Notes: a model not told the origin generated them from the letters alone. A stretch of DNA of 64,000 bases from Bilabrum cf. latius (GCA_965178125.1 OZ237756.1:682001-746000), one strand, 5' to 3'; shown: positions 7,005 through 32,275, counted from the stretch's first letter. Program-made: numbers and translations.

Positions 7005-7206
7005 AAGTACTTTATAGTATAGTCTTCTACTTATATCAAAGCCCGAGCTTCTTGTATTCCTTTAGTTTTTCGTGTAATTTTTTCCAAATACGTGGATTAA
7101 TTTGCTTGACAATATGCTCTATCATCAACTCCTTTAAAAATGGGTTCATTTACTATAGTGATATAGAATGGCTTAAATTATCATCTCTTGGGAAATCCTT
7201 GGAAAA

Positions 7207-8250: not shown

Positions 8251-8460
8251 CTGCGTCGCATCTTAGCGTCACAGGCCGTGCCAGAGAAGAACGCTACTGG
8301 CTTGGGCTGCTTCTGTATTTCTTTGCTAATCCTGTCTAGCGCAGAGGCTGATCTCTCTCTTTCCCCAGTGTAGACTCGAACCGGAATGACACCTCGCCGG
8401 TCGATCACAGGATCACGCCAGTATCAGCTGAACGTTCGCGAACGAACAGCTGACCCTGCC
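8251..8460. repeat. Internally deleted copy of host repeat 29817-30778
   Basis: 8251-8415 matches 29817-29980 and 8413-8460 matches ~30728-30775. Confidence 0.85.
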
Positions 8461-11400: not shown

Positions 11401-11907
11401 GATAAGAAGAGGGTGTAAGCCGCTGCAAGCGATTTCACAGTCCAACCGTTCTGCTCACAGGCATGCATTCGTGCCAAACGTCAGAGACATTTTTGTTAAT
11501 ATCCGGATGTGGTTCTTCCAGCTGCGATGCTTCGAAGGGCATGAATCAAATGAATGGAGCAGAATCGAGTCGGAGCAGTGAAGGGACAACAAGCCTGGCG
11601 GTACTCGCAGGACACCATGCTTGGAGCTGGCAGTGTGCAACTGCTATGGAGTAGTTGGTGGATCGTGTTTGCTTTGTGACACTATGATATACCGACAAGT
11701 TTTACGTGAAGTGTAGATGGGCCCTGGCTCTTCACACTGTAGTCCAGCAGGCGGCATCCATATGGATCAACGATACGAATACCAAACGGCATCAGAACGT
11801 GTGGTCTTTAGAGTACTAGTAAGATGCTTTATCTCACGTACGAGGCTGGATGTTGCAAGGGGCTTGGGGTGAGACCTCTCGAAAGCTGTATCAGCTGAAT
11901 CAAGACT
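8461..11907. repeat. Segmental duplication, paralog of 42774-46225
   Basis: Direct near-identical copy including the FG-GAP gene and flanks. Confidence 0.92.
8830..11301 (-). CDS. Type I membrane protein: FG-GAP (integrin-alpha-like) repeats, S/T/P linker, Cys-rich module, TM helix; start uncertain
   Basis: Three track ORFs are one frame joined by TAG; repeats FGSSVASLGDLDGDGTTDLAVGA; hydrophobic VIIIVVVVVVVIAV; TGA stop. Confidence 0.85.
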
Positions 11908-11959
11908 AGACTAGATAATCACACACAACAAAACCTAGGTTTTACCCTACAAATTATTC

Positions 11960-12095
11960 TGGTATATTCTGGTTTGGGTCTGAACCCATCATGGGTAGAA
12001 CAGACATGGACCGTTCCCCGCGCGAAGTCGTATGTGTATCTAGGGTTGCTGATATCGACGACGAGGATCCATGCCACAGCAGCAGAGCTTGGGCC
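11960..12095 (+). pseudogene. Left half of a non-LTR (LINE) RT remnant split by element B
   Basis: VPRAKSYVYLGLLIS resembles the RT domain-7 YLG motif; frame continues at 28892 when one GGGCC is removed. Confidence 0.5.
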
Positions 12096-13061
12096 GGGGG
12101 GGGACAACAGGTGGTGGTAGGTACACCAAGCGTTTAGGACGAGGGCTACGCTACGCTCGCCCCTCCTTTAAAGGCATATTTAGCAACTCAAGTGTTTCCC
12201 CTATAAACCTAAATGATTTCACAGGGGGTTCCCCAAGAACCCCTATAGAACCCCTCTATGTACCCATTTTCAGATATAAAATTTACTCCTACGAAGTAGG
12301 GGTAAATTGAAGAATTCTAATATTTAACCCCCTTATAAACTCTAACAGCAAAGACAGAGATGTTTTAGTAAAGTAGGAAAAAATGAAGAAATTAACCAAG
12401 TGTCCAAAATATCTCTGTGTTTGCTGTAGGAACGGAAGGATGAATTCCCAAGAGACCAAGAGACCAACCGAGGATTTCCCCAAGAGAACAAGGTATTTTA
12501 TCAAGAGACCGAGGTATGTTCCCAAGCGACAAACCGATAAACCGACCGATGAACCGACCGATGAACCGACCAAGGATTTCCCAAGATGCTCGGGCTTTGC
12601 CCTCCGCTCTTTTGATATCTTTTTCAAAGATTGGATTTCCCAAGGATTTCCCAAGCGACTAAATTGTTCTCCGAAGCAACCAAACCGATTACCCAAGAGA
12701 TGATACATTATAAGGAAAACGAAAACGTATTTTAAGTCCCTTTGGAAAAGTCCCCCAAGATGCTCGGGCTTTGCCCTCCGCTCTTTTGATATCTTTTTCA
12801 AAGATTAAAATTGAGAGATTTTACAGGTCAATTATAAGAGACTTAGAAAAAATAAATTAAGTTCCCAAGATGCTCGGGCTTTGCCCTCCGCTCTTTTGAT
12901 ATCTTTTTCAAAGATTAAAATTAAATGTTGTAATTCCTATGATGCCACCATAAAAATTAAAAGGAAAATAAAAAACAAATTATAATTGTTTTCCAATTAA
13001 AAACACAAAAATTGATTGAAAAATTTTGACAATATAGGATACAAAGAAATATTAAAATTAA
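12096..13061. repeat. Left TIR of element B
   Basis: Reverse complement of 27975-28886 with repeat-number indels. Confidence 0.92.
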
Positions 13062-13311
13062 TTTTCCAAGATGCTCGGGCTTTGCCCTCCGCTCTTTTGA
13101 TATCTTTTTCAAAGATTGGATTTCCCAAGAGATGATAATTAAGACCATTCTATATCACTATAGTAAATGAACCCATTTTTAAAGGAGTTGATGATAGAGC
13201 ATATTGTCAAGCAAATTAATCCACGTATTTGGAAAAAATTACACGAAAAACTAAAGGAATACAAGAAGCTCGGGCTTTGATATAAGTAGAAGACTATACT
13301 ATAAAGTACTT

Positions 13312-13596
13312 ATGAAGCTACATACCTACGATTTTGAAAAGGTTGTTGAGAATTTTCTATTTAAAGCACCCTCAAGACGCAAGAATAAGAAGTATGATGT
13401 TTTTGACGAAAATGATGAATATATTACATCGTTTGGTGATAGGCGGTATTAGCAATTTTACGATAGAATAGGGTATTACAGCCATTTAAATCATTTAGAT
13501 ACGGACCGCCAATTTAGATACTTCAAACGACACGGTATCGAAGTAAAACCAAGAACCCCAAAGTTCTTCTCACATTTTTACCTTTGGAGTTCATAA
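13312..13596 (+). CDS. DUF5754-like small viral protein
   Basis: 94 aa; SRRKNKKYDV..SFGDRRY..H.D..R..Y..RH..LW pattern recalled from giant-virus/virophage proteins. Confidence 0.7.
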
Positions 13597-14127
13597 ATGA
13601 CACGTCAATAAATACACTAATTCATCAGGATTTAATGTATGTTTCTTACAAACCTTATCCACCCACTTTTTATACTAATCAGCGTTTTTTCCCCTATTCC
13701 AAAGACGAACTATACAATGTCTCCCGCAGGTTGCTATATCCATTCCATCCGCCTAAAACTAATATGGGTTATAGTCAATCTTATACGGAGAATGATACAT
13801 TAAATATATTAACTCAGGGTCTTCATAAAAACGTTTCCGCACGCTTTCACTCATTGTGTGCTATTGCCTATCAGGACGAATTCCATAACTGTCAAAGAAG
13901 TATATTGTTTTATTACGCTTAAATAAGCACACCCAGTGTCCAGAATTTATTTCTTCTTGGTATAGAATGATACAACAATTACAACGACTAAATAATCCAT
14001 CAATACTATTGTACTATCCTAATTCTGTATATGGAACGATGTTTACCGACGTAGGAAGAAACCCCTTAATATTTGGTGGAGTTTGGAGGAGAACACGAAT
14101 ATCACTATCGCTAAGAGCATAATCCAT
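13591..14127 (-). CDS. Adenain-like maturation cysteine protease
   Basis: 178 aa; same H-D-Q-C motifs as 5543-6097; ends YLLTCHL-TGA. Confidence 0.92.
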
Positions 14128-14316
14128 ATATATTTATTATAGAAACATATATTGGGGGAGATGAATTCTCTTAACCACTATTTAAGCGTAGAAGTATTTC
14201 TACAAAATCCGTTTTGGAATTTGTGGATAGCATAAAAGACAATCATTCAAAATAAGTTTTCAACAAAAAGACAAAACACTTTAGAAAAAATAAAAACATA
14301 TAGTAAATACACTAAA

Positions 14317-15219
14317 ATGGCTCATTTTTCTTGGAAGGAAACTACAAAATCAACACCCATCGCATATGACACTCACGGAAAACGTATTTTATACACGGCG
14401 GAAAACACAGACAACCAATTTGGAGATGATAGTATGTCATTTTAGGATTTTCAAGTATCATCACTTACAGGGAAACGATTTCCGCAGAGGAAAATGGATT
14501 TATTAGCACGACACTTAATCAAACAGGTCGAACCCCTAGACGAAGACATCAAATACTTGTATGAAAAAGCATAGGAAAAGAAACATAAAGAGATTACATT
14601 AAAATAGGGTGAATTCCAATCATTACCAAATCCAAAAGGAAGAGAGGTCATTTATATCACCGCACCATCAGGTGCTGGGAAGTCTACTTGGGTTTCCAAA
14701 TATGCTAAGAATTATCACAGAATGTTTCCAAACAGGAGAATTATTTTATTTTCACGAGTATAGTAGGATAAAGTCTTAGATGAAGTGAAAGGACTGAAAA
14801 GGATTATTTTAAATGAGGAACTGGTGGAGAACCCGATTGATATTCATTAGGAATTAAGGGACGCCTTAGTAATCTTGGATGATATTGATACAATCAAAGA
14901 TAAGAAGTTAAGGGAAGCCCTCAATCATTTACAGGATGAAATATTGTAGGTTGGAAGACATTCGAATACTTCTGTATTAATCACAAGTCATTTATCTACC
15001 AACTATAAAAGTACCCGAATTATTCTTGCGGAAAGTCATAAGTTCGTTATATTCCCTTAGTGTTCTTCCGCACATTCTCTAAGGTATTTACTAAAAAATT
15101 ATATAGGACTTGAGAAACAAGAAATCTCTAAAGTCTTAAAAATGCCTTCTAGGTGGGTATGTGTCCACAGGAATTACCCGAGGTATTTATTAGGAGAAAA
15201 GTAGGCTTACCTTATGTAA
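14317..15219 (+). CDS. Packaging ATPase
   Basis: 300 aa with 9 in-frame TAG; APSGAGKS, LVILDDID, IL[Q]VGRH. Confidence 0.94.
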
Positions 15220-15248
15220 TTTTGGTCAAACTTGTTATAAAAGTTTCT

Positions 15249-15488
15249 TTAAATAATATTCTATTCTCGTATATACCGACTTGCTTGAGGTAAACTCATA
15301 CCAGTCTACTACATCACCATTTTTACAAGTTTATTGCGGCGTTTCATTTTGGCGCTCACTTTCCGCTTAGGCTTACTACGGCCTTTTCCAACTTTAATAT
15401 GTTTGTTTTTAACTCTATTTAAAGCGTCTTGTTCTTTCTATAGCGCGAGTTGTTTGGTTCTCTATATAATCCACTTATCAATATCCAT
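15249..15488 (-). CDS. Small basic putative core protein
   Basis: Ortholog of 3783-4022. Confidence 0.7.
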
Positions 15489-15551
15489 TATACTATACAC
15501 AAACACTTTTTTTTATTTTTTGGTCAAGCTTTTTATAAAAGCTTATAGTAA

Positions 15552-16733
15552 ATGAAAACTGCTAAAGTGAATGCTCTTATTCAGCAAGCCCTAGAAAGGG
15601 AACTGGACAATGCTAAAATGTTAGATTTACAGGCAAGGGACGACGTAGATTTAGAAACAGAATATAGTGATTTTATAAGGAAAAGGGCAAAAATTGAACG
15701 ATTAAAAGAAAGTGGAAGGTATGGAACTCCAGCGTAGAGAAAATAGGCAGACCAAAGCAACGAGGAAATCATATCTAAGTCAATATCTGGTATAATGAAA
15801 GGTATTATTGAGGGTAAAAATGTAAGTCCAGCAGTGAAAGCATTGAAGGATTTTGTTGGTAATATCAATATGTCTCCACAAATGAAGCAACAACTAGCCC
15901 GTCAATACGTAAATATTGAGAGATTTCAAAGGAAAGGCTACGAAGGACTGCAGAGAGTTCCAGCTGAAGACAGAAAACAACTCTTAGAATTAGGGAAAGT
16001 TATATAGGAGGCATCCGGACAACGAATACCGTAGGGAATGTTGGGAATTGATTAGTAGCCAACATCTTTACAAACACCTGCTCGAACAACAAGAAGAAAC
16101 ACGTTTTCCGCTCCAACACAAGTACAGCTTCCAAAAAGGTCTTCGGGTGCGTATAAATAGTTATTGGAAAGAGCCAGAGAAAGAATACAACAAGACAGAC
16201 CCTTAACTGAAAAACAACGAATAGCGTGGGATTTAGAATAGGGAAAGAATTTCTCACAAAGAACATCACAGGGGCAGACAAATATGTTTTAGCATTTTCA
16301 AGAGGGTTCAAGTAGTAATGCGTCAAAAACATCAAAAGACTTAGATGCCATATTAGCCGCAGCGAGCAATGAAAGACCACTACCGCAAGGAAGCACTCCG
16401 GGGGCGTGGGACCCAGAAACTGGTGAGTACTATGATATGCCGAGTAGGATAGAAATTGAGCAGGGAATTGGAAAACGTGCTACTAGACCTGTGTAGCGAT
16501 TTACGGGGTTTAGTCCGCCCTATGGAATTTAGTAGCCTGATTTAGAAGACCCACCATCACGCGCAATGACTGTAGAAGAAAGTGGAAAACCAAAAAAGGG
16601 GAAAGGATTACGAGGTGGAAAAAGGATTATCTATGATACAGCAATGAATGTAGCCAAGAAAGTAAAAGGAGCCGATAAAGATATTCATCATTAGGTTGCT
16701 ATGGAACTATTACATCTTTTAGGAAAAGATTGA
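15552..16733 (+). CDS. Hypothetical 393-aa protein, possible core precursor
   Basis: Open from ATG to TGA with only TAG interruptions; GKGLRGG near the C-terminus. Confidence 0.75.
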
Positions 16734-16798
16734 CCAAAACCTCTTATTTACATCTTTTGGCAACCTGATAAAAATTATTTCTGTGGATATACTATAAA

Positions 16799-17290
16799 AT
16801 GTCAGTTTCAAATCTTCTATCTAAGAACAGTCTAGACCTTATGTCTCAAACTATTACGTGTAATGTTGTGAGTAGCGACGCAATTAAAGTGTCCGCAATT
16901 ACTAACTCTACGGGAGCAGTCATAGGCAATCCAAGTATTGAATTCAAAGACGGAGAGCCTTATATGGAGTGGGGTGAAACTGTTCTACGGTTTGGAAAAA
17001 ACGGAGCGTCTGCTGGTTGTCAGTTCAGTATGAGCGAAGAAGGAGAAAGATGCGATATTTCACTAGTTGGTTCATTCAAGACTTCTCAAGAGGGTGTTGT
17101 TGGGCTGAGTGAGGTTGCTGGAGCTACATTGGCTGACGCTTCTACCCCTATTAATACGTCAGCAGAGCGAAAGTTCAAGGGCGCTTTAGTGTATAATGGA
17201 AGCGACAACGATGTCTATGTGGCGATTGGCAGTTCTTCTACATCTAGTTGGAAATCCTTAGTGTCAGGTTCACTTATTACACCATCTTAA
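16799..17290 (+). CDS. Hypothetical 163-aa Ser/Gly-rich protein upstream of penton (possible fibre/spike)
   Basis: Intact ORF; function guessed from position and composition only. Confidence 0.65.
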   Translation: MSVSNLLSKNSLDLMSQTITCNVVSSDAIKVSAITNSTGAVIGNPSIEFKDGEPYMEWGETVLRFGKNGASAGCQFSMSEEGERCDISLVGSFKTSQEGVVGLSEVAGATLADASTPINTSAERKFKGALVYNGSDNDVYVAIGSSSTSSWKSLVSGSLITPS

Positions 17291-17346
17291 TTATACTTTA
17301 GAAAAGTAATCAAACCCACCCCATAATTATAAACGTCTATAGTAAA

Positions 17347-18456
17347 ATGAGTTCTCCAGACCGATTTTACATTACCGCAAACATACGAAATAACGAAGAT
17401 ACTTTCCAACCAGCGACCTATAGCGAAACCCGCAAGTAGCCATTATTAGATAAGGATGTTGGTGATTATACGATGTCAGTATTCCGGTTTTCCATAAGCA
17501 CCAATTCAATACCTTTATGGGTTCCACACATAGAAACCGATAAAGTGAAAAATCCATCTTCAAATCCTAATCAAACGGTGTATAGAATAAGCATTACAGA
17601 TGAAGACGGAGTAAGTTTGTGGACCTCAAGCATTCAGTGGAGACCCTAGTTAACAGGGGAAAACCAACCATCATTTTCCAATCCTATGTAGTTTGTTCCT
17701 TATTATTATATGTATTCCGTGTAGCATTTTGTTGATTTATTCAACGAAACCATATAGAATGCTTTATCAGCGGATATTACATCAGTTCCGGTTTTACTCT
17801 TTAAAGATGGAAAGTTCAGTTTAGTAGCAAATCCCGATTACGACGAGGAAAACTCAGGACAGAAATTTAAATTAGTGTTGAACGAAGCCCTTAACGAACT
17901 GATGACGGGTTTTCCTATGGAACGAATGGATATCCAAGATGACGACTTATACGCAAGCATTCTATTCAAATCCTTAGGAACGAATGTTTTATTTGATGAT
18001 GGCTCTTCTGTTGGAAAATATGAACCTTAGGCATACTTCGAGGGAAACCCAACGGGAGACTACAGATTAATGATGACCTAGGAACGAGGGAGTTTAGTGT
18101 AGTTTTAGATTTTTCGCGGAATAGTTTTCACATCTTCAAGTCTTCCAGTGAGGAGTGAGGCAATATCCTAGAAATCCGCCTATGGACAATCCACTAATAC
18201 AGTTCAAAATTCAGGTTCAGGGACCGAGAGTTTATTAGTGGATATGGATTGTGTATTAGATGATACTGAAACAGTTAATTAGTAGGTTCTTCAATACCAG
18301 CCCCATATTCTCCACGAAATTGATTTTTTAGATACACATTCAGTAGATAGGATTTAGTTTAATCTATATTGGAAAGACAATTATTCAAATCTAAGACCTC
18401 TTTATTTACGCCACGGAAGTGTGAGTGTGAAGTTTTTATTTAAGAAACGGAAGTGA
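17347..18456 (+). CDS. Minor capsid protein (penton)
   Basis: 369 aa; YSETR..PLL....DY.MSVFRF..IP N-terminus and YWKD..L.PL...SVKFLFKKRK C-terminus typical of virophage pentons; directly before MCP. Confidence 0.85.
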
Positions 18457-18561
18457 AATTAGTTTTGTATTACTTTTATGAAGAAACGAGTTTGCGTTCT
18501 TTTCTAAAGAACTGAGTGATAGAATTTTATTCGTTGTATATAATATACAAGGAAAACAAAA

Positions 18562-20328
18562 ATGTCATTGAATACATTTGCCCTTCAGCCAGTCAAAGTA
18601 TCTCCCGCAACATTAGACGTACAACCAAAGCCTTATGAAGTTCAAGAAGGTTATGAGAACCGAACGTTTCGCAGATACGCTCCATCTGGTTCAGCCGGTA
18701 ATTATAATTCAGGTGTGAATTGGAATATTAGTATGCCTTCAGGTGTAGGTTTATGCCGCCGCGCATACGTGTCTTGCCGTTTTTCCATTACCTTTTCCGT
18801 GAATAATCAAACCGCAGGTGCTCTCGTACCATTTACACCAGATTACGATGCTCCACGCTCATATCCACTTAATCGCTCCATTGCAACACAGACAGTTGGT
18901 ATCAATAACATTCGCTTTACTTAGAATAACGCGGAAATAATGGACGTAGTGTCCCATTGTTTAGATGATGATGTTCATCGTGTGAATTGCCTTGATAGTG
19001 TGTATAGACGCGACAATGTGCCTTCATACGCGATGATGAGTTAGGCTACAAATAACGCTCTTGCTTCGTATGAGGACGTGCTTTAGGACCAACCCGCAAG
19101 AGGAAGTGGATTTTATAACTTGGTTCAAATGGATAACACTCCAGTGCCCGCAGGTCAAACGCAAAATCGTGTTCTTGTCTTTGAATGTACTGAGGCGGTT
19201 CTTTGCCCACCTTTCCATTACGAAAGTAAATAGGAACAACCAGCCATTTTCGGTTTAGAAACTCTTTCCTTGGATATCAATTGGTCGCAACTGAGTAGAA
19301 CCGTGTGGTCTCGTATTCCACAATAGGACTTAACTGCTACCGTTTAGTCGGTAGATGTCCAGAACCCCTATTTATACCTTGAATAGATTACCCCTAAAAC
19401 AGGGTTTGTCCTTCCAAAACAGGTATCCTATGATATTTTTGAAATGACTTCATATACTCAAAGCTATGGTGCAACAATCAGCGCAGGAACAACAGCAACT
19501 CTTACGAACAACAATATTAAACTTAGCAATTCAGTTCCATCTCGTCTATTTGTGTTTGCCCGTCGCTCACCTACCAGCGTCTCAGTAGATTAGGGAAACA
19601 CATTCCTTGGAATTGAGGGAATATCTATTGAGATGAATAACCAAAGTGGATTACTCGCAGATGCTTCACCTCAGTAGCTATGGGACTTATCCAGAAGCAA
19701 TGGACTTGAATAGCAATACGCGGAATGGGCTATGCGTAAATTCGGGGATAGGGTGCTATCAGGCGCAATTCTCTCCATCGACCCCGCCAAGGATTTGAGC
19801 CTAGATGTAGATTAGACAAATGGAAGCAACGGCTCTAACCAATTGTCTATCACCCTACGAGTGAAGAATAATGATGTTGTAGATTACCAAAATGTGTAGT
19901 GTGTGGTTGTGGGATTGTACGAAGGAGTAATGAATGTGATTGATGGTTCTAAGATTGAGTATTAGCAGGGTGTCATCTCACGGGCAGATGTTCTTTCCGC
20001 CTCTAAACTACCCGTAGTATATGAAAGTCAATTATCAGGACTACACGGTCGCGGTCTTGGGAAAAAGATTAGACACGCCTTAAAAAAGTTCGCACACAAA
20101 ACCGCTGATTGGGTAAAGAAAGGCAATCTCAAAAAAGTATTAAAGGATGGTAAGTAGGTATTTGACACCGCTAAAATGGTGGGTGAAATGGCTGGTATGG
20201 GACGCCAAAGGAAACCCCGAAAAACTACCAAGAAAGGCAAGGGCTTAACAGGTGCCAAGTTGGGTTCTGGATTAACAGGTGGTAAATCTCTCTCTCGCAA
20301 TCAATTACTCGCTATGCTCCAAGCTTGA
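18562..20328 (+). CDS. Major capsid protein (virophage double jelly-roll type)
   Basis: 588 aa with over a dozen TAG; YPLN..I, TEAVL.PPF, VPSRLFVFAR; basic Gly-rich C-terminal tail. Confidence 0.88.
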
Positions 20329-20383
20329 GTATGAAAAGGGTAAACCAATAAATATTTGTCTTGGTATATAGTATATCAAAACA

Positions 20384-21001
20384 ATGTCAGTATCATCTGC
20401 TGTAATGGTTGCTGGGACTTTGGCTCCTTTAATGTATTCTGGTAGTCGGTGTCTATATTCTTGGTGGACGAAAGACGGAACTTAGAAACAGAAATCCTGC
20501 GTGGTTGTTCCAAAAGGCTCTGGGAAAACTACTTTGTGTCGCTCTATAGAAAGTGTTGATAAAGACACTTTGGTCATTGACTTAGATGAATGCGTAAATG
20601 GTTAGATTTCAGGGTAGGAAAAATAGAAAATGGAGAAAATGCTAATTGATGGTGATGAAAGCACCCACCGTCTCTTTTATTACTCTTAGTCAAGATTAGT
20701 GTATGAAAAAATTAAAGCGGATTGGCTCACAAAGAAATCCAGGCGTTTAATTGTTATGGTTGGTTCGTTGGAATTAGCGAAAGATTTATTTAAGGAAAGT
20801 TCAATTTTTGTGTGTGTGCCTTCTCACAGTCTTTTTGAGGAAATCCGTGAAGGGAAAAAATCGGGGGACTTATTGTCTGTAGAACGCTCAAGAACGAATT
20901 TAATCGCTGGATTACATTAGAGTTAGTACTGTGTCTATTCATCCTTTTAGCAACTGGAGGAATTCGTCCGGAAAACCTTCGGTCTTGGAAGTCGTCTATG
21001 A
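20384..21001 (+). CDS. P-loop NTPase/kinase-like protein
   Basis: 205 aa; VVVPKGSGKTT, LVIDLDE; hydrophobic N-terminus. Confidence 0.7.
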
Positions 21002-21026
21002 GTTTTTTAATACAAGCCTATACTAA

Positions 21027-22283
21027 ATGGATAGTTTTTATACACTTAGTGGCGGAAAAATGAATTCTGGTTTTGTTAAGACGTACATTAGTGTCAAAGA
21101 ACCAAAGAGTAAAACAACAAGGACATGGAAAAGTGAACATCCTTATTCTAAAGAAGCCCTTGAAAAAGCAATTAAGTTTGAAGATGGTGTGCGAAGCACC
21201 CCCTCTCGGCGCAGTTAGCTGGCGCAACAGCTTAAAGATGGTGTGGGAACAAAAGGAAAACCAAAAAAGAAATCCTAGAAGAAATCCACACAATCCAACA
21301 CACTTCATTAGTATTTAAAAGATGGTTTGCGAAGCACCCCCTCTCGGCGCAGTTAGCTGGCGCAACAGCTTAAGGGTGGAGTAGTGTATGGGAATTCAAA
21401 CGAAGTCCAGAGAACACTACAGCAATACGGGGATAGAACAATTATAGCTATGAAAGTAATTAGAACCCCCATTAGTGGCGCGATTAATCGGTTGCTTAAC
21501 TGGATTACCCTTGGAAAAATGAAAAAGTTAAAAAATAAACACGGATATAATGATTTTTTTCACTTAGCCTTAGAGTTGAACCTTGGAGGTGGAAAAAAGA
21601 TTTATCTTGAGAAGAATGAGAGGGTTAATTTGTCCTCAAGATTTTCCACCAACAAGAAAACACAAACTATGGAAGTAAATATTAATGGAAAACCTTAGAA
21701 AACAGTAAGGGAATTATATGAAACCACTTTACAGAAAATAGGAGAATACAATTTTTATTAGTATCGTGCTTTCTCGTTGAATTGTCAAAAGTTCATTTAG
21801 GATGTTCTACGCACAAATGGGTTTTTGACACCACCCTTAAACCAATTTATTATGTAGGATGTAGAGAGTATTGCTAAGAACGTATCGGGATTTACTAAGA
21901 GAGTGGCTAATGCTGCTACTGATGTGGCTGGGTATTTTTCCAAATGGTTCGGGAGAGGTTTAGATGATTTACCGGAAGATGTAAGAAACGCTTTAAGAAA
22001 AAATTAGGAAAAGCATAAGTAGAACACAGAAAGGGATTTTGGACAAGATTTTAAGGAAGGTTGGGATTTAGCAACTAAAACAGTTGGAAGACCAATTATG
22101 AAAGAAATCCATTCGCATACGAATGACCCAGTATCGGGTATGTATCTGGAAATATTTGGAGGTCAATGTCAGTGTGAAACAAAACGTTCAAGAGTTATGA
22201 AAATGGCGTCCATTTTAAGAGGAAAAGGAATATCCAAGAAGACAGCACTTAAGTAGGCTTGGAAAATGTTTGCGTATGATTAA
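21027..22283 (+). CDS. Protein with putative permuted papain-like (H...NC) domain and basic tails
   Basis: 418 aa; FFHL..LEKNE..YRAFSLNCQKF; ~54-bp internal duplication at 21181 and 21319. Confidence 0.7.
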
Positions 22284-22303
22284 TTTATGATTGTGTATAG
22301 TAA

Positions 22304-22945
22304 ATGGCGGGTGTTGATGATTATACCGAAGAACAACTACATTTACTGGCTAGTTAGCCACATCAGAGTTTGGGGAAAGACGCTAGACAAGCACTAGCAA
22401 TTTTGAAAGGATTGAGGAAGCACTAGAGTATAGGGGAAAAGTACGCTAATCGTGTATATGTAAACCCTTAGGAAAGGGAAATGATGGAAATGCTCGCCGA
22501 AAAGACCGAACAAGAATTTGATACGCTAGGAATTGACAAAGATAGTGATGGTGATTATGACGTGGGTATACTAAAATTCTTATCACCATCACTACACGAG
22601 CAACACGACACAACACTTGATGATTTTAATTAGGCAATTCATAGAAAATATGCGTCAGAACGGAGAGATACTATGCGTGAATTTTTTGATGCTAGAGAGA
22701 AGGGAAATAGTTAGAAAGAACTATTATCATCGAGATAGGCTAGAGTAATGCGAATGGGTGGTGAAGTGCCTGATTGGGGCTCGAACGAAAGAGCGAAGTA
22801 GAGTTTTAAACCACAAAAAACTGGAAAAGGGAGGCGCCGTCGGAAAAACCCAAAAGCAAAACTAGCAATGAAAATCGCTCAGTAGTTAAGAGGTAGAGGA
22901 TATGGGAAAAGTGATGCTCTAAAAATTGCTTGGTAGAATGTATGA
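22304..22945 (+). CDS. Hypothetical protein with basic C-terminal motif
   Basis: 213 aa; GKGRRRRK..AMKIAQQLRGRGYGKSDALKIAW. Confidence 0.7.
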
Positions 22946-22986
22946 CTTAAATCTAACTCTATAGTATAATACTATAGAATACAAAA

Positions 22987-23259
22987 ATGACACTCAGTCA
23001 TTCAGAAAGAAAAGAACAGGATAAGCTGTATGCCCGTGAATACTACCGGAAAAACAAGGAAAAACTTGGAGAATAGATAAAGTGTTCCTGTGGTGGTGTA
23101 TATAAGAAGTACAATAAATCACATCATTGTAGAACCAAAAAACACCTTGATTGGCTTCAAAAAGAGGAAGACACAAAAAGGGAACAAATTAATATTATGG
23201 ATGAACTTGATAGTTTGCGATAGGAAATTTAGAGACTAAAGGAAAAGCAGACTATTTAA
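22987..23259 (+). CDS. Zn-ribbon/C2H2-like protein
   Basis: 90 aa; CSCGG.Y...NKSHH..TKKH. Confidence 0.75.
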
Positions 23260-23260
23260 T

Positions 23261-25102
23261 TCAATCTTTTCTAAAAATTTTCTTCTTACTGTGAATAATT
23301 TGACATTCACCTGATTGCTCCAACTTCATACCCCCAAGGTTCGTTGATAACTTTAGAGGTAATTCTTTCTCACTAATGAAACCATCCGTGTTGACATAGT
23401 GAATGTTTTCAAGATATGGCTCAATCATTTTGGACAATTTACTTCGTCCAAGTCCAGTCAGAAAGGGGCCCATTCTTGCGTAGGCTGTTTTGTAATCGTA
23501 CTCTTCGTCATATAGTATACCCGATACAAGTCGTCCAGATGCTTTAGGATACGCGTTCTTTAATTGTCTAAAATTCATACAATCACCATCTCGGAGTGTT
23601 TTTGTGATTGTGTTTTTCTAACATAGAGAACCCCAAATATTATTTAGTATCTCCTTCGCACACTTCAATCCCTATTTTTTATAACCGTACAATCGCTCAA
23701 TCATCGTTTTGAACAGTCCATTTGCCTTCACCCTTGTTGTCTCATCGTAAAGTAAAGCGTTGGCTTCACCGTCTTCAATCAGAGACACCTAAGCGCCCGT
23801 CTCAATCGCTCGGTTAATGTCATATTGGGTATAATAATTGTTTTTTCTTTTTTGTACCAATTTAGAATTGATATTTTCAATATGTACCCTAAAAATGCCG
23901 TACGGATAGAAACCACTTGAAGGTACTTCAAATTTTACGAACTTACCCCTTCTAACCGGAAATGTAAATGTACCCTTCATAATACTTGGATAAAATGAGT
24001 TAATATCGTACTGGTATGCGTTTTTTAATGTAGTATTCTTGTTTGCCCAATTCAATCCACCACCCGAGGCTTTAGAAATCCATAGTGCTTCAACTTGGTC
24101 AATCGGGTCGGCAGGGTAAAGTTTGGAAAACTTACTGAAATACGACTTTACAAATAGGGATGTTCTAAACATAAATCGTGATAAATCCATATATCCACCC
24201 GTCTCCTTCGCTAATGCCCTTACATTTTTCATCCGTTCTTCGTGTTTTGTTCTTAGTTCTTCCTTGGACTTGACTTCAAAGATGAATTTATCCTTGGAAA
24301 CTGATGTAATGCCTTCTGATTGATACTCACGGTCTCCATCAAATAGTAAATAAGAATTCTCGGATTGATACAAGCGGGTAATTAGCGTACACGGTTCTTT
24401 AGACGGCGGTGTAAATAATTCTTTCTAACTAATGGGGGGAACATACTTGTAATGCCCATTTGTTAATGAAACAGTTAGAAGACGGTCAAAATGAGTTTTT
24501 CCAGATGTGTATTCAAAGTCGCCTACAACATGAATGCGTACTTGAAGTTCGTCTTCTATCTCTGGTATTCTTCTGTAATCAACGGGGTCATCACGTCCAA
24601 TTTTCAAGAGTTCTTTGAGGTCGGACTTCGACAATCTTTTAATAGTAGTTTTCCATTTGCCTTTTGCGCTCTTTACATTTACCTTACGACCAACTGAAAA
24701 AGGAAAAGCCTGTTTTATAGCGTTATATAAACAATCGTTATGTTCGTCAGCACCGCCTTCTGGTTCTGGCTTTCTAATAAGCAGTAGTTCAAAAGAATTC
24801 AATTTTCTATATTCGTCGTCATCGTCGTCTTCGTAGCCCGCCCATAAACTATCTTGATTTTCTAAATCATCTGTAGTAATCCAAGTGCTTCGTGTTCGCC
24901 AACCTGTATCTTGGTAATTGATATTCACCTTAAATTTAAAGTCATCAAACGGATTTTCACCACCATCGTCGTAATCACGAATAAATTCCAAGACATTTTT
25001 TACGGTGATAAGGTCCTCGCTCTCAAATCGCATACTCCATATTGGTTTCCCATTAAGACGCAATTTGGTTCTTTGGGGTTCCGTAAAATCGATTTCGGGC
25101 AT
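23261..25102 (-). CDS. Protein-primed family B DNA polymerase (short)
   Basis: 613 aa, three track ORFs in one frame; YDINSFYP, KEILNNIWG, YVNTDG. Confidence 0.9.
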
Positions 25103-25121
25103 TCTATAGTATCTATTATAT

Positions 25122-25153
25122 TATAGAATACGATAATTATTCTTAAGGTACGA
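25122..25153 (-). promoter_or_regulatory. 32-bp motif upstream of pPolB
   Basis: 29/32 identical to 26836-26867. Confidence 0.6.
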
Positions 25154-25159
25154 ACTCAC

Positions 25160-26821
25160 TCACTTCTCAATTTTACAGAGGAATTTGGAAAGTTTTCCTT
25201 TTTTGTTCTTTGGTGGGTTCTCTTTTATCCATTTTTGAATAGCGATGCTATTCTCAACACTCAGCTGTTTCTGGATTTTCTTATGGACTTGTTCCGTCGG
25301 TGTAATCTCCTTTTCTAATTCCAACTATTCAATCGTTTCCTACTGCTATGCGACTTGTTTCTGTAGTTCTCTAATCTACTCTCGAAGAACATCTACCTCG
25401 GATTTTGCTTTTTCCATCTCAGCAGAATGACGAAGTGCCTAAAATTTAGATTGGAAGCCTTTTAGTAAGTCTGCGTGTTTCACATTAAATTCTTGTTTTC
25501 TCTATTTGTTCATCGTTGAATGAACACCTACCTCTGACAATAGTGTTTTAATCATAGGTGTACCAAGGTTCTTCACTCTACCGTTCAGTTCCTGCTTTAG
25601 ATAATTGCGGAATTCCAAGACTGTCATTTTAAAATCTCTGCCTTCGTCCAGCCACTCTTCTTTTAGAATTTTTAAAACCGGATGTGCGCCATCAAGAATT
25701 CCTTTGTAAAAATTCTTTGATTTTGGTGCGAATTGTCCTGTAAAGTCTGGTGATTTATCATAGATTTCAACCAATAACATATAAAATGCCTTAGCCACTT
25801 CTGGATTTTCTGTAAAACGTTTTAGTGTTGTAAAGTATTCTTTGTCTCCTTTCTTTGATGTATTCACATCCAAAACACAATATCTACGGATTTCCTCGGT
25901 GATTTTGATTGGACTATCATTCGTATCAATAATTAGATTGAATGTATTCGGACGACTTTCGGATTTGACAAACTTCTCATTACAGGAAAAGTGTTTTTCC
26001 GTAATAAGATTTCTTAGTGTTGCCTACATGGCGTCCCAAATAGTTGGCGAGGCTTTTGGAATTTCATTAAAATTGACTAATAGTTTCCCGTCCAGAATTG
26101 AGTTGAAGGCGTCGGGTTGAAGCATCTTGTGTGTAAGCGTCTATAGTGTAAGGGTATATCCGAGTAGTTTTCTCATAAGGAAGGTAATAATCATCGATTT
26201 ACCAGTTCCTTGTGGAGATTTCAAATATAGTGCTGTTCCCAACTTCTTTCCGCCCACAATAACGTGAGCCAACCATTTCATCACAAAATCACACTATTCT
26301 TTGTCTTCTGAAGTCCACACCTTCTGGATATGTTCATAAATCATAGTCGCGCCTGCTTTTGCGTCTTCGGATAAATCCTCTATGTTTCCACAGTTTTCCC
26401 GTGTAAGTATAGGTGAACCCATAACGTTAATTGTTTGATTGTCGTAATCCACGGTAGGTGAATTAAATTTTCTTACAATCGTAAATACGTCGGTATTCTC
26501 ATTTAAGAACCAGTCTCGTGCTGACCAAGTCTTTACTCTTTTGTTGCCCACAATCGCGTAAATACAGTGTCCCCCAATCAGGTAATTTTCAGTAATATTT
26601 TTATTCGTAAGGAACTACCAGACTGGTTTCTGGGGTTCGTCATCACTTATGTTATTCCGATTTAATTCAGATGCTATTAGAAAATACACCCCGCCACCTT
26701 GCTCGTGGGTGCGGTAGAAGTATTGTCTAAGGTATTGAATACATTCCTCTTGTTTTCCGGCATTACATAGGTCCATAAGGCTTTTTGACGAATACGCTTT
26801 AGTCGGCAGAGTGAATGACAT
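25160..26821 (-). CDS. Superfamily 3 (D5-like) helicase
   Basis: 553 aa; SPQGTGKS, LVNFNE, IIDTND; coiled-coil tail. Confidence 0.88.
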
Positions 26822-26835
26822 TTTTGTTGTTGTAC

Positions 26836-26867
26836 TATAGAATACGAAAATAATCCTTAAGGTACGA
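26836..26867 (-). promoter_or_regulatory. 32-bp motif upstream of helicase
   Basis: Shared with the pPolB upstream region. Confidence 0.6.
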
Positions 26868-26878
26868 TACGGGGCATC

Positions 26879-27934
26879 TCAATTTTCTATATCCCACTCC
26901 AAAATTAAATTAGGAGCAATTTCTTGGATTTTATTCTTTGGTTCCCACGTCCAATGTTCTGGTTCTGGAAAATCTTTCCATTCTATTTGATATTCTGTTT
27001 CGTTCTCGGATTTTATTTTTTTTGGCAGAAAGATTGTCTGAGCATCTCGGTTATTGTCCTCATTATCAAAGTCGATAATCTGTAATTCCTCTTTTGTATA
27101 AGCCACTAAATCGTCCTAATCCACAACATATAAAGGTGGTTGTTCGGGTCTTAATAACACTTTAGTAACCGTTTTGATTTCTGGATTATAGCGTAAATCG
27201 GAAGCACGAAAATTTCCGGATAATTTTTGCTGTAAATTTGTAGCCTTTCTGGGTTCTTCTAATGGTATACGAACTCTTGTACCCTCTTCCAATATATTAC
27301 AAGCGTCCCCTTTACACTACGTAAAGTCGAAGTGTTCTGGGGGTAAAGGTGGTTCTTCTATATACTTTTCCAGTTGATATTCATTATAGTTTTCAATGAT
27401 GTTTGGAAGCATATCCACCCATTCTACGCTTTCGTTACCTGTATTTAACTCATTAACGTTCTATAGGGTAAATATGGCTTTTCCCAACGTTTTATTTAAG
27501 TTTTCCACTAATGCTTGTTGTCGGTGGCGACCTGCTTTATTTCTTCGTACAAATACGTCGGTCTCTTCTAAATATCTTTGTAAAGCGTTGAATTCTTTTC
27601 CATTATCTATTTCCAAACGGTACTGCGGTTTCTGGACATTTCCACGATTGAAAATCTTTTTTGACGCCTTTAATACTTCGTTCTAACGCTTGGTTTTGAG
27701 CGGTTCAGCATCGGCCTACTTTGTATGTAAATCAATAGCAGTTAATGCGTATTTATAATTCTTGTCGTGTGGTAAAGATAATAAATCCATTTGTACCACT
27801 TGGTGAGGTTCTGGTACATTTACGTGGGGTCGATTTACTCCTTTGGGTCGTTTTGGTCGTTTCATTAAATTTACAATACGACTGTTGGGATAAATGTTTA
27901 GGGATTGTAATATTCTTTCAAAGGCGCTACTCAT
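26879..27934 (-). CDS. rve integrase with C-terminal chromodomain
   Basis: 351 aa; QMDLL, IDNGKEF, QQALVENLN; YQIEWKDFP...TWEP. Confidence 0.92.
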
Positions 27935-27974
27935 TTGCTATATAGTTCTTTAATAGAGGTATGCTTTTCCTTGC

Positions 27975-28886
27975 TTAATTTTAATATTTCTTTGTATCCT
28001 ATATTGTCAAAATTTTTCAATCAATTTTTGTGTTTTTAATTGGAAAACAATTATAATTTGTTTTTTATTTTCCTTTTAATTTTTATGGTGGCATCATAGG
28101 AATTACAACATTTAATTTTAATCTTTGAAAAAGATATCAAAAGAGCGGAGGGCAAAGCCCGAGCATCTTGGGAACTTAATTTATTTTTTCTAAGTCTCTT
28201 ATAATTGACCTGTAAAATCTCTCAATTTTTGGGGGACTTTTCCAAAGGGACTTAAAATACAATTATAATTTGTTTTCGTTTTCCTTATAATGTATCATCT
28301 CTTGGGTAATCGGTTTGGTTGCTTCGGAGAACAATTTAGTCGCTTGGGAAATCCTTGGGAAATCCTTGGGAAATCCTTGGGAAATCCTTGGGAAATCCTT
28401 GGGAAATCCTTGGTCGGTTCATCGGTCGGTTCATCGGTCGGTTTATCGGTTTGTCGCTTGGGAACATGCCTCGGTCTCTTGATAAAATACCTTGTTCTCT
28501 TGGGGAAATCCTCGGTTGGTCTCTTGGTCTCTTGGGAATTCATCCTTCCGTTCCTACAGCAAACACAGAGATATTTTGGACACTTGGTTAATTTCTTCAT
28601 TTTTTCCTACTTTACTAAAACATCTCTGTCTTTGCTGTTAGAGTTTATAAGGGGGTTAAATATTAGAATTCTTCAATTTACCCCTACTTCGTAGGAGTAA
28701 ATTTTATATCTGAAAATGGGTACATAGAGGGGTTCTATAGGGGTTCTTGGGGAACCCCCTGTGAAATCATTTAGGTTTATAGGGGAAACACTTGAGTTGC
28801 TAAATATGCCTTTAAAGGAGGGGCGAGCGTAGCGTAGCCCTCGTCCTCAACGCTTGGTGTACCTACCACCACCTGTTGTCCCCCCC
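27975..28886. repeat. Right TIR of element B
   Basis: Inverted copy of 12096-13061. Confidence 0.92.
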
Positions 28887-29550
28887 GGGCCCGGCTACGA
28901 AGAGAGGGACGTGATAGCCATTGACATGGTCCCCCACGTTCGGCGGAGGGTGGCAATGGCGATGCAACAAGCATCCATCATAACCCGCGCTGCACTTGAC
29001 TGTGATTGGTCTACACTCCCAGATTCTCTATTCTGGAGCGCTCACAAGTGCGCTCTATGGCATTGGTGCTGCTGGATGCGCCACTGGCTGGGAACGCTTC
29101 CGAGGTCTGGAACAGCGGATCTCTGTGAACTACGGCGTGATCATGAATGCAGCTGTGATGAGTGTAGTGGACCGTTTCCTGGCACGCATGAGGTGGATGC
29201 TGGCCACTGGAATGGCTGACCGTATGCCATTTGCCGTCGAAGGATCCTGTAATGCTTGCTCGGAGTTCAGTAACAAATGTGTAGACCCACCAGTTAATGG
29301 TGCTGAGAAAGAGAGCGACGGGGCACAGGACCAGCGTCAGACTCCCGCCGCGGAGTCGCCTGGTCCACTGGGTCGCCTCCCGCGACCCCTGCCGGCACGG
29401 TCGGTGCGCCCCGTCGTCTCAGGGAAACGACTCCCTGCCGATGGGTCAATCAATTCACACAAATCACTACATCCCCAGGCAGCCCTTTTGGCTGCCTCCC
29501 CCTTGGCCGAGTCGTGGGTGGGTGGGAATGCAGCGAAGCGTCAAAAGTAA
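28887..29550 (+). pseudogene. Right half of LINE-like remnant (post-RT thumb region, frameshifted)
   Basis: PHVRRRVAMA, then in another frame ILYSGALTSALYG..RGLEQ. Confidence 0.45.
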
Positions 29551-32275
29551 CCCACTGTTGCAGTCTCAGCCGCCATAATCATAGCAAATACACATGTTTA
29601 ATTCAGGAGACCGAATTCTCTGAAACTATAGCGTAGTTTGTCCCCTTGAAGAGGAATCGCACAGAAAGACATCGTGGCGCGTCTCAAAGCCCACCGAAGT
29701 CAGACTTGCGGGCAGCGAAGGCGCAACGAAAACTTCTAAAATAACTTGTGCCATCTAAAGCGTTCGAGTACTCAGTGCTGCGGCGCAGAGCTGCAGACTG
29801 GTCGTTGTGCCCTGAGCTGCGTCGCATCTTAGCGTCACAGGCCGTGCCAGAGAAGAACGCTACTGGCTTGGGCTGCTTCTGTATTTCTTTGCTAATCCTG
29901 TCTAGCGCAGAGGCTGATCTCTCTCTTTCCCCAGTGTAGACTCGAACCGGAATGACACCTCGCCGGTCGATCACAGGATCAGTTGGTGAGGCCAGCAAGG
30001 TCTCTGAGATTGAGGTCGCGCGGTGGGCGCAGGACCCGCTCGAGGTGCAGGAGCAGATGCGACGTAGCGATGCGGAGGAGTGAGAAAGATGCGACGTAGC
30101 GAAGCGGAGGAGTGAGAGAGAGAGAGAAAGCGGCTAGGGATGCAGACTAGGAGCGGCGGCGACGCGGGGTGGGCGACGGATGGAGAGGGGAGTGGTGTGG
30201 GTGGAGCAGAAGGAGAGGGCGAGGGATGGGGGGGGGGTGGGGGGCGGAGCAGAAGGAGAGGGCGAGGGGTGGGGGGGGGGGGTCGGGGTGGGGGCAGAGC
30301 AGAGAGAGAGAGGGCGAGGGATGGGGGAGGGGGGGGGTTAGAGAGAGAAGGCGATAGATGGGCGGGGGGGGGCAAAGCAGGGAGGAGGGGGGGGGGCGGC
30401 GGTTCACCAAGTGGGGAGGAAGAAGTGGAGGAGAAGATGAGTGGTGGGGTCATCGGGTTGATACGGCGGATAGAAAGGGGGGAGGCACAGGCCGGGTAGG
30501 TGGGGGTTTGGGCATGTGGGGGACGGGTGACTCGGATCAGGGGGATCGGATCACCCGACCACGTGCGGATGTGGAAGTTGAGAGGTCACAATTAGACTCG
30601 AGCGGCAATCAAGCCGCGTGCTATTCGGGCGCTGAGAGGCAGCGCTCGCCAGTTTTCTTTTCGCCTTAACATTTACAACCATGTGTGACTGTCTGCGAGA
30701 TTAGGGTGCTGTGTACAACGTGTGATCTCACGCCAGTATCAGCTGACCGTTCGCGAACGAACAGCTGACCCTGCCCGGACGTCGCTTGCCGAAAGTGGCG
30801 TTGGATTCTGAGGTATGGCTTGCGAGTGCTGCCGGAAGGACCGCACGGGACCTCTTTGAGCTCATGCGAGCCCCAGATAGGAGGGGTCTACCAGTGGTAT
30901 CTCACTTGCCAGTGGATGTCGCAGCAGGGACCTCTTAGTGCTGCGGCGTCTCTCAGGCTTCACCTTCATGACAATGGAGTATCTGTTGACAACGGAGTGA
31001 CTTGGCTGGGGGAGAAGGAGCTGAATCGGGCGGTGCGCCGTTGGCACTCGTCGAAGTCTGCTTCTAGCATCAGGTCTTTCAGGAACTTGAGCCCGGGATG
31101 CCACTCCGGCTACGTCCTGGCGAGCGCAATCAGGCAGCAGAATGCAGAACAGACAGTATCACTGGATCAGTACCATGGCCAGGTTGACGGGGTGTTCGGC
31201 CCTGGTTCACTGCCTACCACTGCAGCACTGCAACCGCGTGGCTCCGACGGGCGATTGATCCTTCGTGTTCGTGCGGGTATTTACCCTCGTTCCTGTTCCC
31301 CTACTCCAGAGCTGACTGACAAGGTGGCTGTGGAGATGACTCGCCGAGAGTCATCGCTGCAGTCACGTGATCTTCAGGCAGAGTGGGTCTGCGGTGACTG
31401 GGCCAGTCGAACTTCAGAGGAGAAGAGCAAGATAAGGAAGGCATGGGCGGACCATGGCCTACGTCTTGAACCTCACTCACAACCTCTGGAGCAGGACAGG
31501 CGTGGAGTCGCTGCTGCTGAGCGAACCATTCCCAGGATGCGCCGAGCAATTGCCCGCTCTAGCGCCTCTGTTGGATTGGTACGGCTTGCGACACGGGTGG
31601 TTGATGAGCTGAGTGTAAAGATCAGAACGTTTCCGTCCTGGACTGCCTGCAGGTGGTGGACTGGGGCCTCGGTTCGAGGCTGGACTGCGAGCTCATCGGA
31701 TGACCTGTATGCTGCAATGCGAGCTCAGGATCGAAGGGGACATCGTGTGGCTCGCCCTAGAGGGCTCATGCACACTCTTGAGAGGGTCTGGGCGCGTGAG
31801 ATGGCGACTTCGCTTCGCTGTGTCTTGCGTGAAAGGGAGTAGCTGCGTCGTACATGGACGTCCAGCTGGTGGCGGATGGCATGTGTTGACGGTCCGGCTG
31901 TCCTTACGAGGATGGCTCGGGCTCACTCTCCTTCCCTCTGGTCCTTTGGTGGATGAGTGGCTGAGTCTCAGGGTGATCGTCTCGGTATGTGTAGCACCAT
32001 GATGTTTTGGAAATCCTCTTCGGGACGAGGGGTTCTTCTTTCTTTCTTTTGCTTTCTCTTGAGGCTTTGGCCTTTGCTTTAGGGGGGGGGGGGGGCTGCG
32101 GGTCTTTTGATCGCGTTGTTCTCTGAGGTCATCTTTGATGGCCCCACCTTGGGGTGTGACAGCCATTCGTGAAAAGTCGTATCGTTACATTCAATCATCA
32201 TCATCACCTTCGAGATCTCGCATCGGACCCTCGTCCAACACTTAATCTCTGTGGCACTCATCGAGACTCCCGAGT

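Follow-up and report, generated by a model that had tools for sequence, protein, structure and literature searches.

A 64,000-nucleotide stretch of the Bilabrum cf. latius assembly (GCA_965178125.1, OZ237756.1:682001-746000), analyzed here in full and referred to as the window, carries at positions 12096-28886 a 16,791-bp element with virophage-type genes that are crossed throughout by in-frame TAG codons. The element has a guanine-plus-cytosine (GC) content of 37% overall (0.34-0.41 over 12001-28000) and lies in DNA of much higher content, 0.55-0.58 at 8001-12000 and 0.58-0.70 past 30001. It is bounded by terminal inverted repeats (TIRs) on the left (12096-13117, from inverted pairs and a family of internal 69-nt direct repeats) and on the right (27975-28886, from repeat finding and alignment of the arms). 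The core arms, 12091-12585 and 28398-28892, are 99% identical over 495 nt; repeat finding extends further arms to about 13117 and 27975, and global alignment of the approximately 1-kb arms gives 959 identical positions out of 1012. A 5-bp target-site duplication (TSD), GGGCC, occupies 12091-12095 on the left and 28887-28891 on the right, both copies identified by direct reading of the sequence and by the empty-site contigs described below, and their positions set the limits of the element proper at 12096-28886. Across both ends the order is host, GGGCC, poly-G through to poly-C, GGGCC, host. An earlier note on this DNA had given exactly these coordinates, together with the TIRs and the GGGCC duplication, which we find at both ends.

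When TAG is read as sense, 14 open reading frames (ORFs) of 90-613 amino acids tile the space between the TIRs; this count, which takes in ORFs of 90 amino acids or more, replaces the approximately 17 of the earlier note. Over their 4528 codons the in-frame stops comprise 105 TAG, 0 TAA and 0 TGA, against 154 TAG, 247 TAA and 259 TGA when these ORFs are read in their two other frames. Five of the 14 terminate in TAA and nine in TGA. As a control, stop-to-stop frames of at least 300 codons were counted in the element: they number eight with TAG as sense, and none under the standard code or with TAA or TGA as sense. The proposal that the ORFs open only when TAG is read through holds for 13 of the 14 and fails for one, a plus-strand ORF call of 163 amino acids at 16799-17290 that belongs to no Pfam family, contains no TAG and is open under the standard code too. 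Within the element TAG makes up 105 of 257 glutamine-type codons (TAG, CAA and CAG; 41%).

Four of the ORFs encode the virophage morphogenesis genes. The double jelly-roll major capsid protein (MCP; 18562-20328, plus strand, 588 amino acids, 14 TAG) contains the Pfam domains Sputnik_MCP_1st (80 bits) and MCP_V20_C (96 bits), both above cut-off, and by sequence matches Sputnik V20 (PDB 3j26_A, E 5.4e-29) and the mavirus MCP (6g45_A, E 1.6e-8). An AlphaFold2 (AF2) model built from 86 sequences (predicted local distance difference test, pLDDT, 84.7; predicted template modeling score, pTM, 0.80) has Sputnik 3j26_A as its best Foldseek match in PDB (E 1.2e-36, template modeling (TM) scores 0.71/0.81), followed by four mavirus MCP chains (E about 1e-27) and then by capsids of nucleocytoplasmic large DNA viruses. 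In BFVD the top of the list is taken by Qinghai Lake virophage and a Sputnik-like isolate, with an Adintovirus capsid fourth and mavirus fifth. The penton, or minor capsid, protein (17347-18456, plus strand, 369 amino acids, 13 TAG) scores 41.5 bits for Pfam V18-19 (cut-off 27); its match to the Sputnik minor virion protein 3j26_N has an E-value of 1.7e-13.

The packaging ATPase (14317-15219, plus strand, 300 amino acids), which we take to be of the FtsK-HerA class, was identified by its Walker-A P-loop and its virophage homologues. Pfam returns generic AAA and P-loop matches alone, all under cut-off; homologues range from 35 to 59% identity and include one in each of 80 standard-code IMG/VR virophage loci, at up to 48%. 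We count nine TAG codons in the gene, the number first reported. The fourth gene (13591-14127, minus strand, 178 amino acids, 5 TAG) encodes a clan-CE (adenain/Ulp1-like) maturation cysteine protease, recognized from invariant residues and fold. It has no match in Pfam, its sequence matches in PDB are repeat-driven WD40 hits with no passing stretch, and a profile search of PDB gives best matches of just E 0.3-0.9. An alignment of 34 sequences (the query and 33 homologues) shows the His/Asp/Gln/Cys active site of the clan, with no variation at H64, Q125 or C134 and with D79/D86 conserved; homologues occur in 50 of the 80 virophage loci. The AF2 model (pLDDT 94.2) places OtDUB, SseL, adenovirus protease and Ulp1/SENP at the top of the Foldseek matches and poxvirus I7L and African swine fever virus pS273R lower, the clan-CE matches having probabilities of 0.99-1.00 with modest TM scores of 0.36-0.49. 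Sites of LxGG type, read by the adenain cleavage-site rule, are present in the disordered tail of the MCP and in a 393-amino-acid ORF.

A replication and integration module follows on the minus strand. The largest gene, a protein-primed family B DNA polymerase (pPolB; 23261-25102, 613 amino acids, 4 TAG), was assigned from Pfam DNA_pol_B_2 and from a homologue on the viral contig L082, to which residues 82-602 are 32% identical. Next to it lies a P-loop helicase (25160-26821, 553 amino acids, 10 TAG) matching DUF5906 at 57.2 bits (cut-off 27.6) and a VapE-like family at 25.1 (cut-off 25), families that we take to be of the superfamily 3 (SF3)/D5 helicase type. An integrase with an rve domain and a C-terminal chromodomain (26879-27934, 351 amino acids, 5 TAG) scores 37.2 bits for rve (cut-off 32.6) and 26.5 for Chromo (cut-off 25.1); over its full length it is 33% identical to the L082 ORF adjoining that contig's pPolB, and a separate search of viral contigs with the integrase gave no match. 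The gene content foreseen in the earlier note, namely the four virophage core genes together with pPolB, helicase (as DUF5906) and rve-chromo integrase, is all present. That note had also named the findings that would speak against a virophage, an MCP lacking the virophage-type double jelly roll or grouping with Polintons: Sputnik is the best match both by sequence and by fold, and the capsid genes fall in Sputnik families, not Polinton-type ones.

We measured the meaning of TAG on the virus genes alone. Every TAG in the 14 proteins was translated as X for a tblastn comparison with the 80 virophage loci; among the 1943 residues opposite TAG, glutamine (Gln, Q) was the most enriched (3.5-fold), followed by glutamate (Glu, E; 2.5-fold) and aspartate (1.9-fold). 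For the 44 TAG columns with at least five aligned residues, we computed likelihoods against substitution profiles learned from real codons of the same alignments; glutamine fitted best (-177.3, compared with -181.8 for glutamate) and was chosen in 1931 of 2000 column bootstraps. Glutamate, which took the other 69, was rejected, as was leucine, which fell outside the eight best amino acids in every likelihood test. In control sets drawn from columns of seven real amino acids (Q, E, K, D, N, S and L), the method recovered the right residue for all seven, in 300 of 300 draws each. Two single-protein likelihood tests on other sets of homologues were weaker and again put glutamine first.

Individual positions agree with this assignment. 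The oxyanion-hole Gln125 of the protease, invariant in the 34-sequence alignment and Q in 45 of 47 tblastn matches, is encoded by TAG in the element, in a second copy within the window (copy A) and in the metagenome contig L081; TAG also stands at penton residue 245 (Q in 31 of 39 matches) and at residue 277 of a 418-amino-acid ORF (Q in five of five). In comparison with L081, glutamine is the residue most frequently found opposite TAG (16 of 63 positions), and five more positions are TAG in both. A public MCP, P0202, has Q at 13 of 13 aligned TAG positions, which we did not count as independent evidence because its gene caller may have read TAG as Q. TAA and TGA remain stops: both are absent in frame over the 4528 codons, and the TAA end of the ATPase coincides with the ends of its homologues. 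Because TAA ends five of the viral genes, UAG is the only reassigned stop. Measured in this way, TAG means glutamine, and the code deduced for the element has the same form as NCBI table 15 (UAG as Gln; UAA and UGA as stops).

Judged by their reading frames, TAG is a sense codon in host genes as well. In two FG-GAP paralogues TAG recurs at two aligned positions, ahead of a transmembrane tail that is conserved. TAG also stands at codons 632 and 842 of a kinase-Arm protein, inside an Arm array that goes on in frame, and a leucine-rich repeat (LRR) protein has 10 TAG in 1460 codons. The four longest host frames (1461, 1388, 1065 and 966 codons) require TAG as sense, whereas the standard code gives a maximum of 646, and the listed host ORFs that reach a stop all end in TGA. 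TAG constitutes 18 of 142 (13%) glutamine-type codons in five Pfam-supported host ORFs. Support from the host is less clear-cut than that from the virus: in DNA of 60% GC, reading TGA as sense likewise opens many frames. Which amino acid TAG specifies in the host is deduced from the viral genes, which the same ribosomes translate; and since neighboring host genes read TAG alike, host ribosomes should be able to translate the element as it stands.

The second element, copy A, lies at 1-8251 (end approximate) on the minus strand. It was recognized by its identity to the complete element, here copy B, relative to which it is inverted; it is partial and mosaic and is cut by the start of the window. 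Across the TIR, the DUF5754 gene, the protease and the ATPase the two copies are 93-100% identical. Codon differences between them are 22 synonymous and nine non-synonymous in the ATPase, and 18 and six in the protease. All 14 TAG codons in these two genes (nine and five) are common to A and B, in agreement with the suggestion that TAG occupies shared positions. The further suggestion that TAG reflects adaptation rather than decay is borne out by its use as a sense glutamine codon, by the mostly synonymous differences between copies and by host ORFs that traverse it.

Homology between the copies ends at 3526, within the 393-amino-acid ORF. Positions 1-3525 of copy A have no counterpart in B and a GC content of 29-32%. 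An rve-chromo integrase distinct from that of B is encoded at 226-1383 and a DUF285 repeat protein at 2231-3028 (Pfam E 8e-55), along with two small ORFs; every one of these has in-frame TAG, and their upstream sequences are unlike the motif described below. This region may represent a different recoded element that recombined with, or is nested in, copy A. A 208-bp insertion at 6692-6899, equivalent to B 13416/13417, interrupts the DUF5754 ORF of copy A, and ORFs across the insertion look GC-rich and host-like.

Integration of copy B was examined with contigs from four public runs aligned to window positions 10500-30400. In each of runs X1, X2 and X5, which come from two studies, one contig represents an empty site that joins 12090 to 28887, omitting 16,796 nt; five nucleotides fit on either side of the joint, giving a target site with a single GGGCC. 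Integration at this site is real, and an assembly chimera is an unlikely source because the empty-site contig carries the TSD as a single copy. Run X7 has almost no coverage, flanks included, and is uninformative on the presence or absence of the element. Six runs from two studies contain 75-87% of the sampled words of 11600-21500. Contigs on the element region fall into identity classes of 99% and above, 95-99% and 90-95% (158, 64 and 61 contigs in X1), which suggests several diverged copies; contig depth is no measure of copy number.

Searching 1.84 billion representative proteins yielded 2264 relatives of the MCP, of which full-length matches are at most 32% identical. Five short matches of 56-71% identity begin or end beside TAG positions: P0004 and P0048 break off one residue short of TAG384, P0001 begins after TAG121 and P0089 after TAG446. 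Ordinary gene finders fragment the element because its genes read the stop codon TAG as glutamine, and these truncated public relatives support the earlier expectation that standard gene callers would miss it. L081, a metagenome contig of 11,485 bp, is a syntenic relative with identities of 52% for the MCP, 54% for the ATPase, 44% for the penton and 47% for the protease (44-58% overall when the homologues of the 205- and 418-amino-acid ORFs are included); its 12 ORFs contain 49 in-frame TAG and terminate in TAA (eight) or TGA (four). Among the 80 ordinary virophage loci, just one of 233 best high-scoring segment pairs has an in-frame stop.

In a FastTree phylogeny of 95 MCP sequences, composed without named references and without a mavirus sequence, copy B groups with P0202 (90% identical), P0203 (61%), P0205, L081 and P0204 in a clade of six with support of 1.0 and a stem of 0.92 substitutions per site. 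The MCP alone found no confirmed relative among viral contigs and no match in the phages collection, and P0205 had no match in viral contigs.

The genes of the element also share an upstream motif. TATA[GC]TA stands 1-20 nt upstream of 10 of the 14 start codons on the coding strand, and the other four ORFs have close variants; of its 25 occurrences on both strands of the element, 10 are concentrated immediately before ORFs, in stretches that make up 2% of strand positions. Most ORFs of L081 are preceded by it too. At several ORFs TC stands directly before the motif or its variant, producing TCTATA, which may be compared with the TCTA late-promoter motif of Cafeteria roenbergensis virus (CroV) type. 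Mavirus and the endogenous mavirus-like elements (EMALEs) have upstream motifs specific to each type, TCTA in the case of mavirus, which the transcription apparatus of a giant virus is believed to read (PMC8547959). We infer that TATA[GC]TA would act as a promoter read by a giant virus.

Together these results make it very probable that 12096-28886 is an intact virophage-type double-stranded DNA provirus in which a Sputnik-type capsid module is joined to a Polinton- or mavirus-like replication and integration module, written in a code where TAG is glutamine. Several observations weigh against this reading or parts of it. Neither the pPolB nor the integrase has a homologue in any of the 80 related virophage loci, which makes the combination of modules unusual; the pPolB itself reaches E 1.3e-5 and 24.7 bits for DNA_pol_B_2, just under the cut-off of 25.8, and has no sequence match in PDB. 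The window contains no tRNA gene, suppressor included, in its 64,000 nt. The two TAG codons in the Arm repeats align with GAG (Glu) in sister repeats, which fits either a change from glutamate to glutamine or a different meaning of the codon. The empty-site contig follows the left flank for just 110 nt (11981-12090) before diverging, and its right side differs by five substitutions and an 8-nt insertion, so that it may derive from the other allele, with additional structural changes, or from a paralogue of the site. Among the contig joints listed, none connects both ends of the element as an episomal or circular form would, and the runs listed for this stretch include no RNA run. The window contains no giant-virus sequence either, and dependence of the element on a giant virus, as well as reactivation by one, is something that we infer rather than observe.

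The absence of giant-virus DNA is what one would expect of an autonomous Polinton/Maverick-like virus-transposon or polinton-like virus that is a virophage in its capsid ancestry only and independent of giant viruses. The pPolB, rve integrase, TIRs and 5-bp TSD are Polinton hallmarks, the 80 virophage loci lack this pPolB and integrase, and an Adintovirus entry is fourth among the BFVD matches of the MCP. However, the MCP, penton, ATPase and protease are all nearest to virophages: MCP and penton match Sputnik Pfam families and PDB chains, the MCP has its 2264 relatives, and the ATPase and protease recur in 80 and 50 of the 80 loci. The placement of the motif 1-20 nt before start codons also resembles the arrangement described for mavirus and EMALEs (PMC8547959). 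We therefore regard an autonomous element as unlikely.

A code private to the virophage, as in TAG-recoded phages, with a standard-code host and suppression supplied by the virus or by a giant-virus helper, could account for the heavier use of TAG in the element (41% of glutamine-type codons, against 13% in the five host ORFs) and sits easily with a window free of tRNA genes. It is nonetheless a very improbable explanation, given that host ORFs with Pfam domains run through TAG, that paralogues keep their TAG positions, that TAG must be sense for the four longest host ORFs to open and that the element encodes no tRNA of its own. Least credible, to the point that we give it almost no weight, is the idea that the insertion is dead and decaying, or that it is a chimera of the assembly, with TAG representing nonsense mutations or errors. 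Copy A is indeed visibly mosaic and interrupted, and the flanking host DNA is repetitive, but decay would have to explain why all 105 in-frame stops are TAG with none TAA or TGA, why TAG falls on invariant glutamine columns, why the differences between copies are mostly synonymous and why a relative at 44-58% identity has the same TAG pattern; a single copy of the TSD in the empty-site contig is not expected from a chimera.

If the element is a provirophage, its life cycle could run as follows. The rve-chromo integrase would have inserted it into the chromosome of a GC-rich eukaryote through a staggered 5-bp cut, leaving the TSD, and the chromodomain may steer insertion into repeat-rich chromatin, both copies sitting in duplicated DNA. 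The element would lie dormant until the cell is infected by a compatible giant virus, whose transcription machinery recognizes TATA[GC]TA just upstream of the start codons. The virophage would then be expressed, replicated, packaged and matured, with the protein-primed pPolB copying the linear genome from its approximately 1-kb TIR ends and the protease trimming capsid precursors. Such a giant virus would itself have to cope with UAG read as glutamine.

The remaining ORFs of the element lie on the plus strand. A 94-amino-acid ORF with one TAG (13312-13596) matches Pfam DUF5754 (E 3e-6; 27.6 bits, cut-off 27.4) and has homologues in four of the 80 virophage loci. The 393-amino-acid ORF (15552-16733, 13 TAG) belongs to no Pfam family and is 32% identical over 210 amino acids to L081 2076-2879. 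A 205-amino-acid ORF (20384-21001, 8 TAG) has a P-loop motif and a weak AAA_24 match (E 0.004) and is 58% identical to L081 7778-8398. ORF calls of 418 (21027-22283, 11 TAG), 213 (22304-22945, 9 TAG) and 90 amino acids (22987-23259, 3 TAG) complete the set; the first is 46% identical to L081 8441-9544 with homologues in five of the 80 loci, and the second partially matches L081 9586-10230. Relaxing the Pfam threshold to an E-value of 1 produced no usable match for the 393-, 163-, 205- and 213-amino-acid ORFs, and, apart from the weak P-loop match of the 205-amino-acid ORF, five of the remaining ORFs are without assignable function.

Further observations concern the replication module. An OTU-like motif suspected in the N-terminus of the pPolB is not claimed, a Pfam search at E up to 1 having given nothing usable for the N-terminal 330 amino acids. 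A 38-nt sequence conserved at 87% stands immediately upstream of pPolB (25116-25153) and helicase (26830-26867); it extends well past the motif common to all genes, and the two genes may share an extra regulatory element. TAG makes up 19 of 69 glutamine-type codons in the pPolB, helicase and integrase module (23261-27934) and 86 of 188 in the other genes (13312-22945; Fisher p = 0.0099). The lower use of TAG could mean that this module was acquired more recently from a lineage with the standard code, such as that of L082. L082 itself is a standard-code IMG/VR viral contig of 29,434 nt, with several LRR genes and a large DEAD-like helicase beside the pPolB and integrase homologues, and with no capsid gene in the 15,123 nt of it that were examined.

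The surrounding host DNA is rich in repeats. A segmental duplication at the FG-GAP gene locus relates 8461-11907 to 42774-46225 at 92-100% identity, with 8461-8830 identical to 42774-43143 and 11302-11907 92% identical to 45630-46225. The 165 nt adjoining copy A (8251-8415) are identical to 29817-29981, which starts 930 nt past the right end of copy B, and contig ends accumulate in large numbers at 29981/29982. By these duplications both virophage copies are placed in duplicated, repeat-rich host DNA. On the host side three very long ORFs, at 32276-36442, 46533-49433 and 49510-51507 (minus strand; 1388, 966 and 665 codons with 8, 6 and 2 TAG), open only with TAG as sense and match no Pfam family; for the first two, Pfam at E up to 1 gave nothing usable. 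The N-terminal half of the ORF at 32276-36442 is highly repetitive.

The earlier note had likened the gene set to that of mavirus and the EMALEs, which holds for pPolB, integrase, TIRs and TSD (all mavirus- or Polinton-like) and does not hold for the capsid module, which is closer to Sputnik and lake virophages. Mavirus and the EMALEs of Cafeteria burkhardae share with our element a low-GC island in a high-GC protist genome, TIRs, a short TSD, an rve integrase, pPolB, helicase and four morphogenesis genes, a type-specific motif upstream of ORFs and polymorphic insertions (PMC8547959). They differ in that the MCP described here is much closer to Sputnik than to mavirus in sequence and likewise in fold, in that its motif is TATA[GC]TA rather than plain TCTA, and in that all genes of the element use the code in which TAG is glutamine. 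With Sputnik and lake virophages, for example Qinghai Lake virophage, the element shares the Pfam families of MCP and penton, its best fold matches (TM 0.71-0.81), and an ATPase and protease with homologues among the IMG/VR loci. It differs from them in its code, in an MCP that is at most 32% identical outside the new clade, and in a pPolB and integrase found in none of the 80 loci. Virophages are assigned to the class Maveriviricetes.

The concept of integrated viruses in a host's variant code has a precedent. Bellas et al. (2023) reported that the double jelly-roll viruses integrated in Streblomastix strix are written in the code of that host, in which TAA and TAG are glutamine, and read the match as a sign of long host association (PMC10120064). 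The S. strix elements fall in a Metamonada MCP group whose seed is an MCP of Trichomonas vaginalis, rather than with Sputnik-type virophages, and have both TAA and TAG reassigned, whereas here TAG alone is reassigned and TAA ends five of 14 genes (PMC10120064). Iotanema spirale has the same UAG-only form of the code, with UAA and UGA as stops (Panek et al. 2017); the available text of that transcriptome-based report mentions no virus (PMC5304391). Code 15 crAss-like phages also carry dense in-frame TAG read as glutamine, but their code differs from that of their hosts, whereas here host ORFs carry in-frame TAG (PMC9523058). An ochre tRNA in one virophage clade was mentioned by Paez-Espino et al. 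(2019) as a possible hint of recoded hosts (PMC6905037). A full-text literature search, with supplementary tables, which might list this host or clade, outside its scope, turned up neither a Sputnik-type virophage whose genes use a UAG-only code nor a giant virus that has one.

Our results have several implications for virophage biology. Virophage proviruses can be invisible to standard annotation, public protein sets holding the relatives of this MCP as TAG-cut fragments only, and the element adds to virophage diversity a deep clade in which a Sputnik-like capsid is combined with a Polinton- or mavirus-like replication and integration module. A nuclear code in which UAG alone is glutamine is rare, and a second case with genomic DNA would be of interest in itself. 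The element also offers a handle on two open questions, that of giant viruses in hosts with variant codes and that of whether a changed code limits the host range of viruses. On balance we favor, though only slightly, the wider view that an entire virophage lineage, represented here by the intact provirus and by its metagenomic relative L081, has co-evolved with protists whose UAG alone is glutamine; this would imply an as yet unseen giant virus that lacks UAG stops and has a late promoter matching TATA[GC]TA, and a three-partner system that its code may seal off from standard-code hosts.

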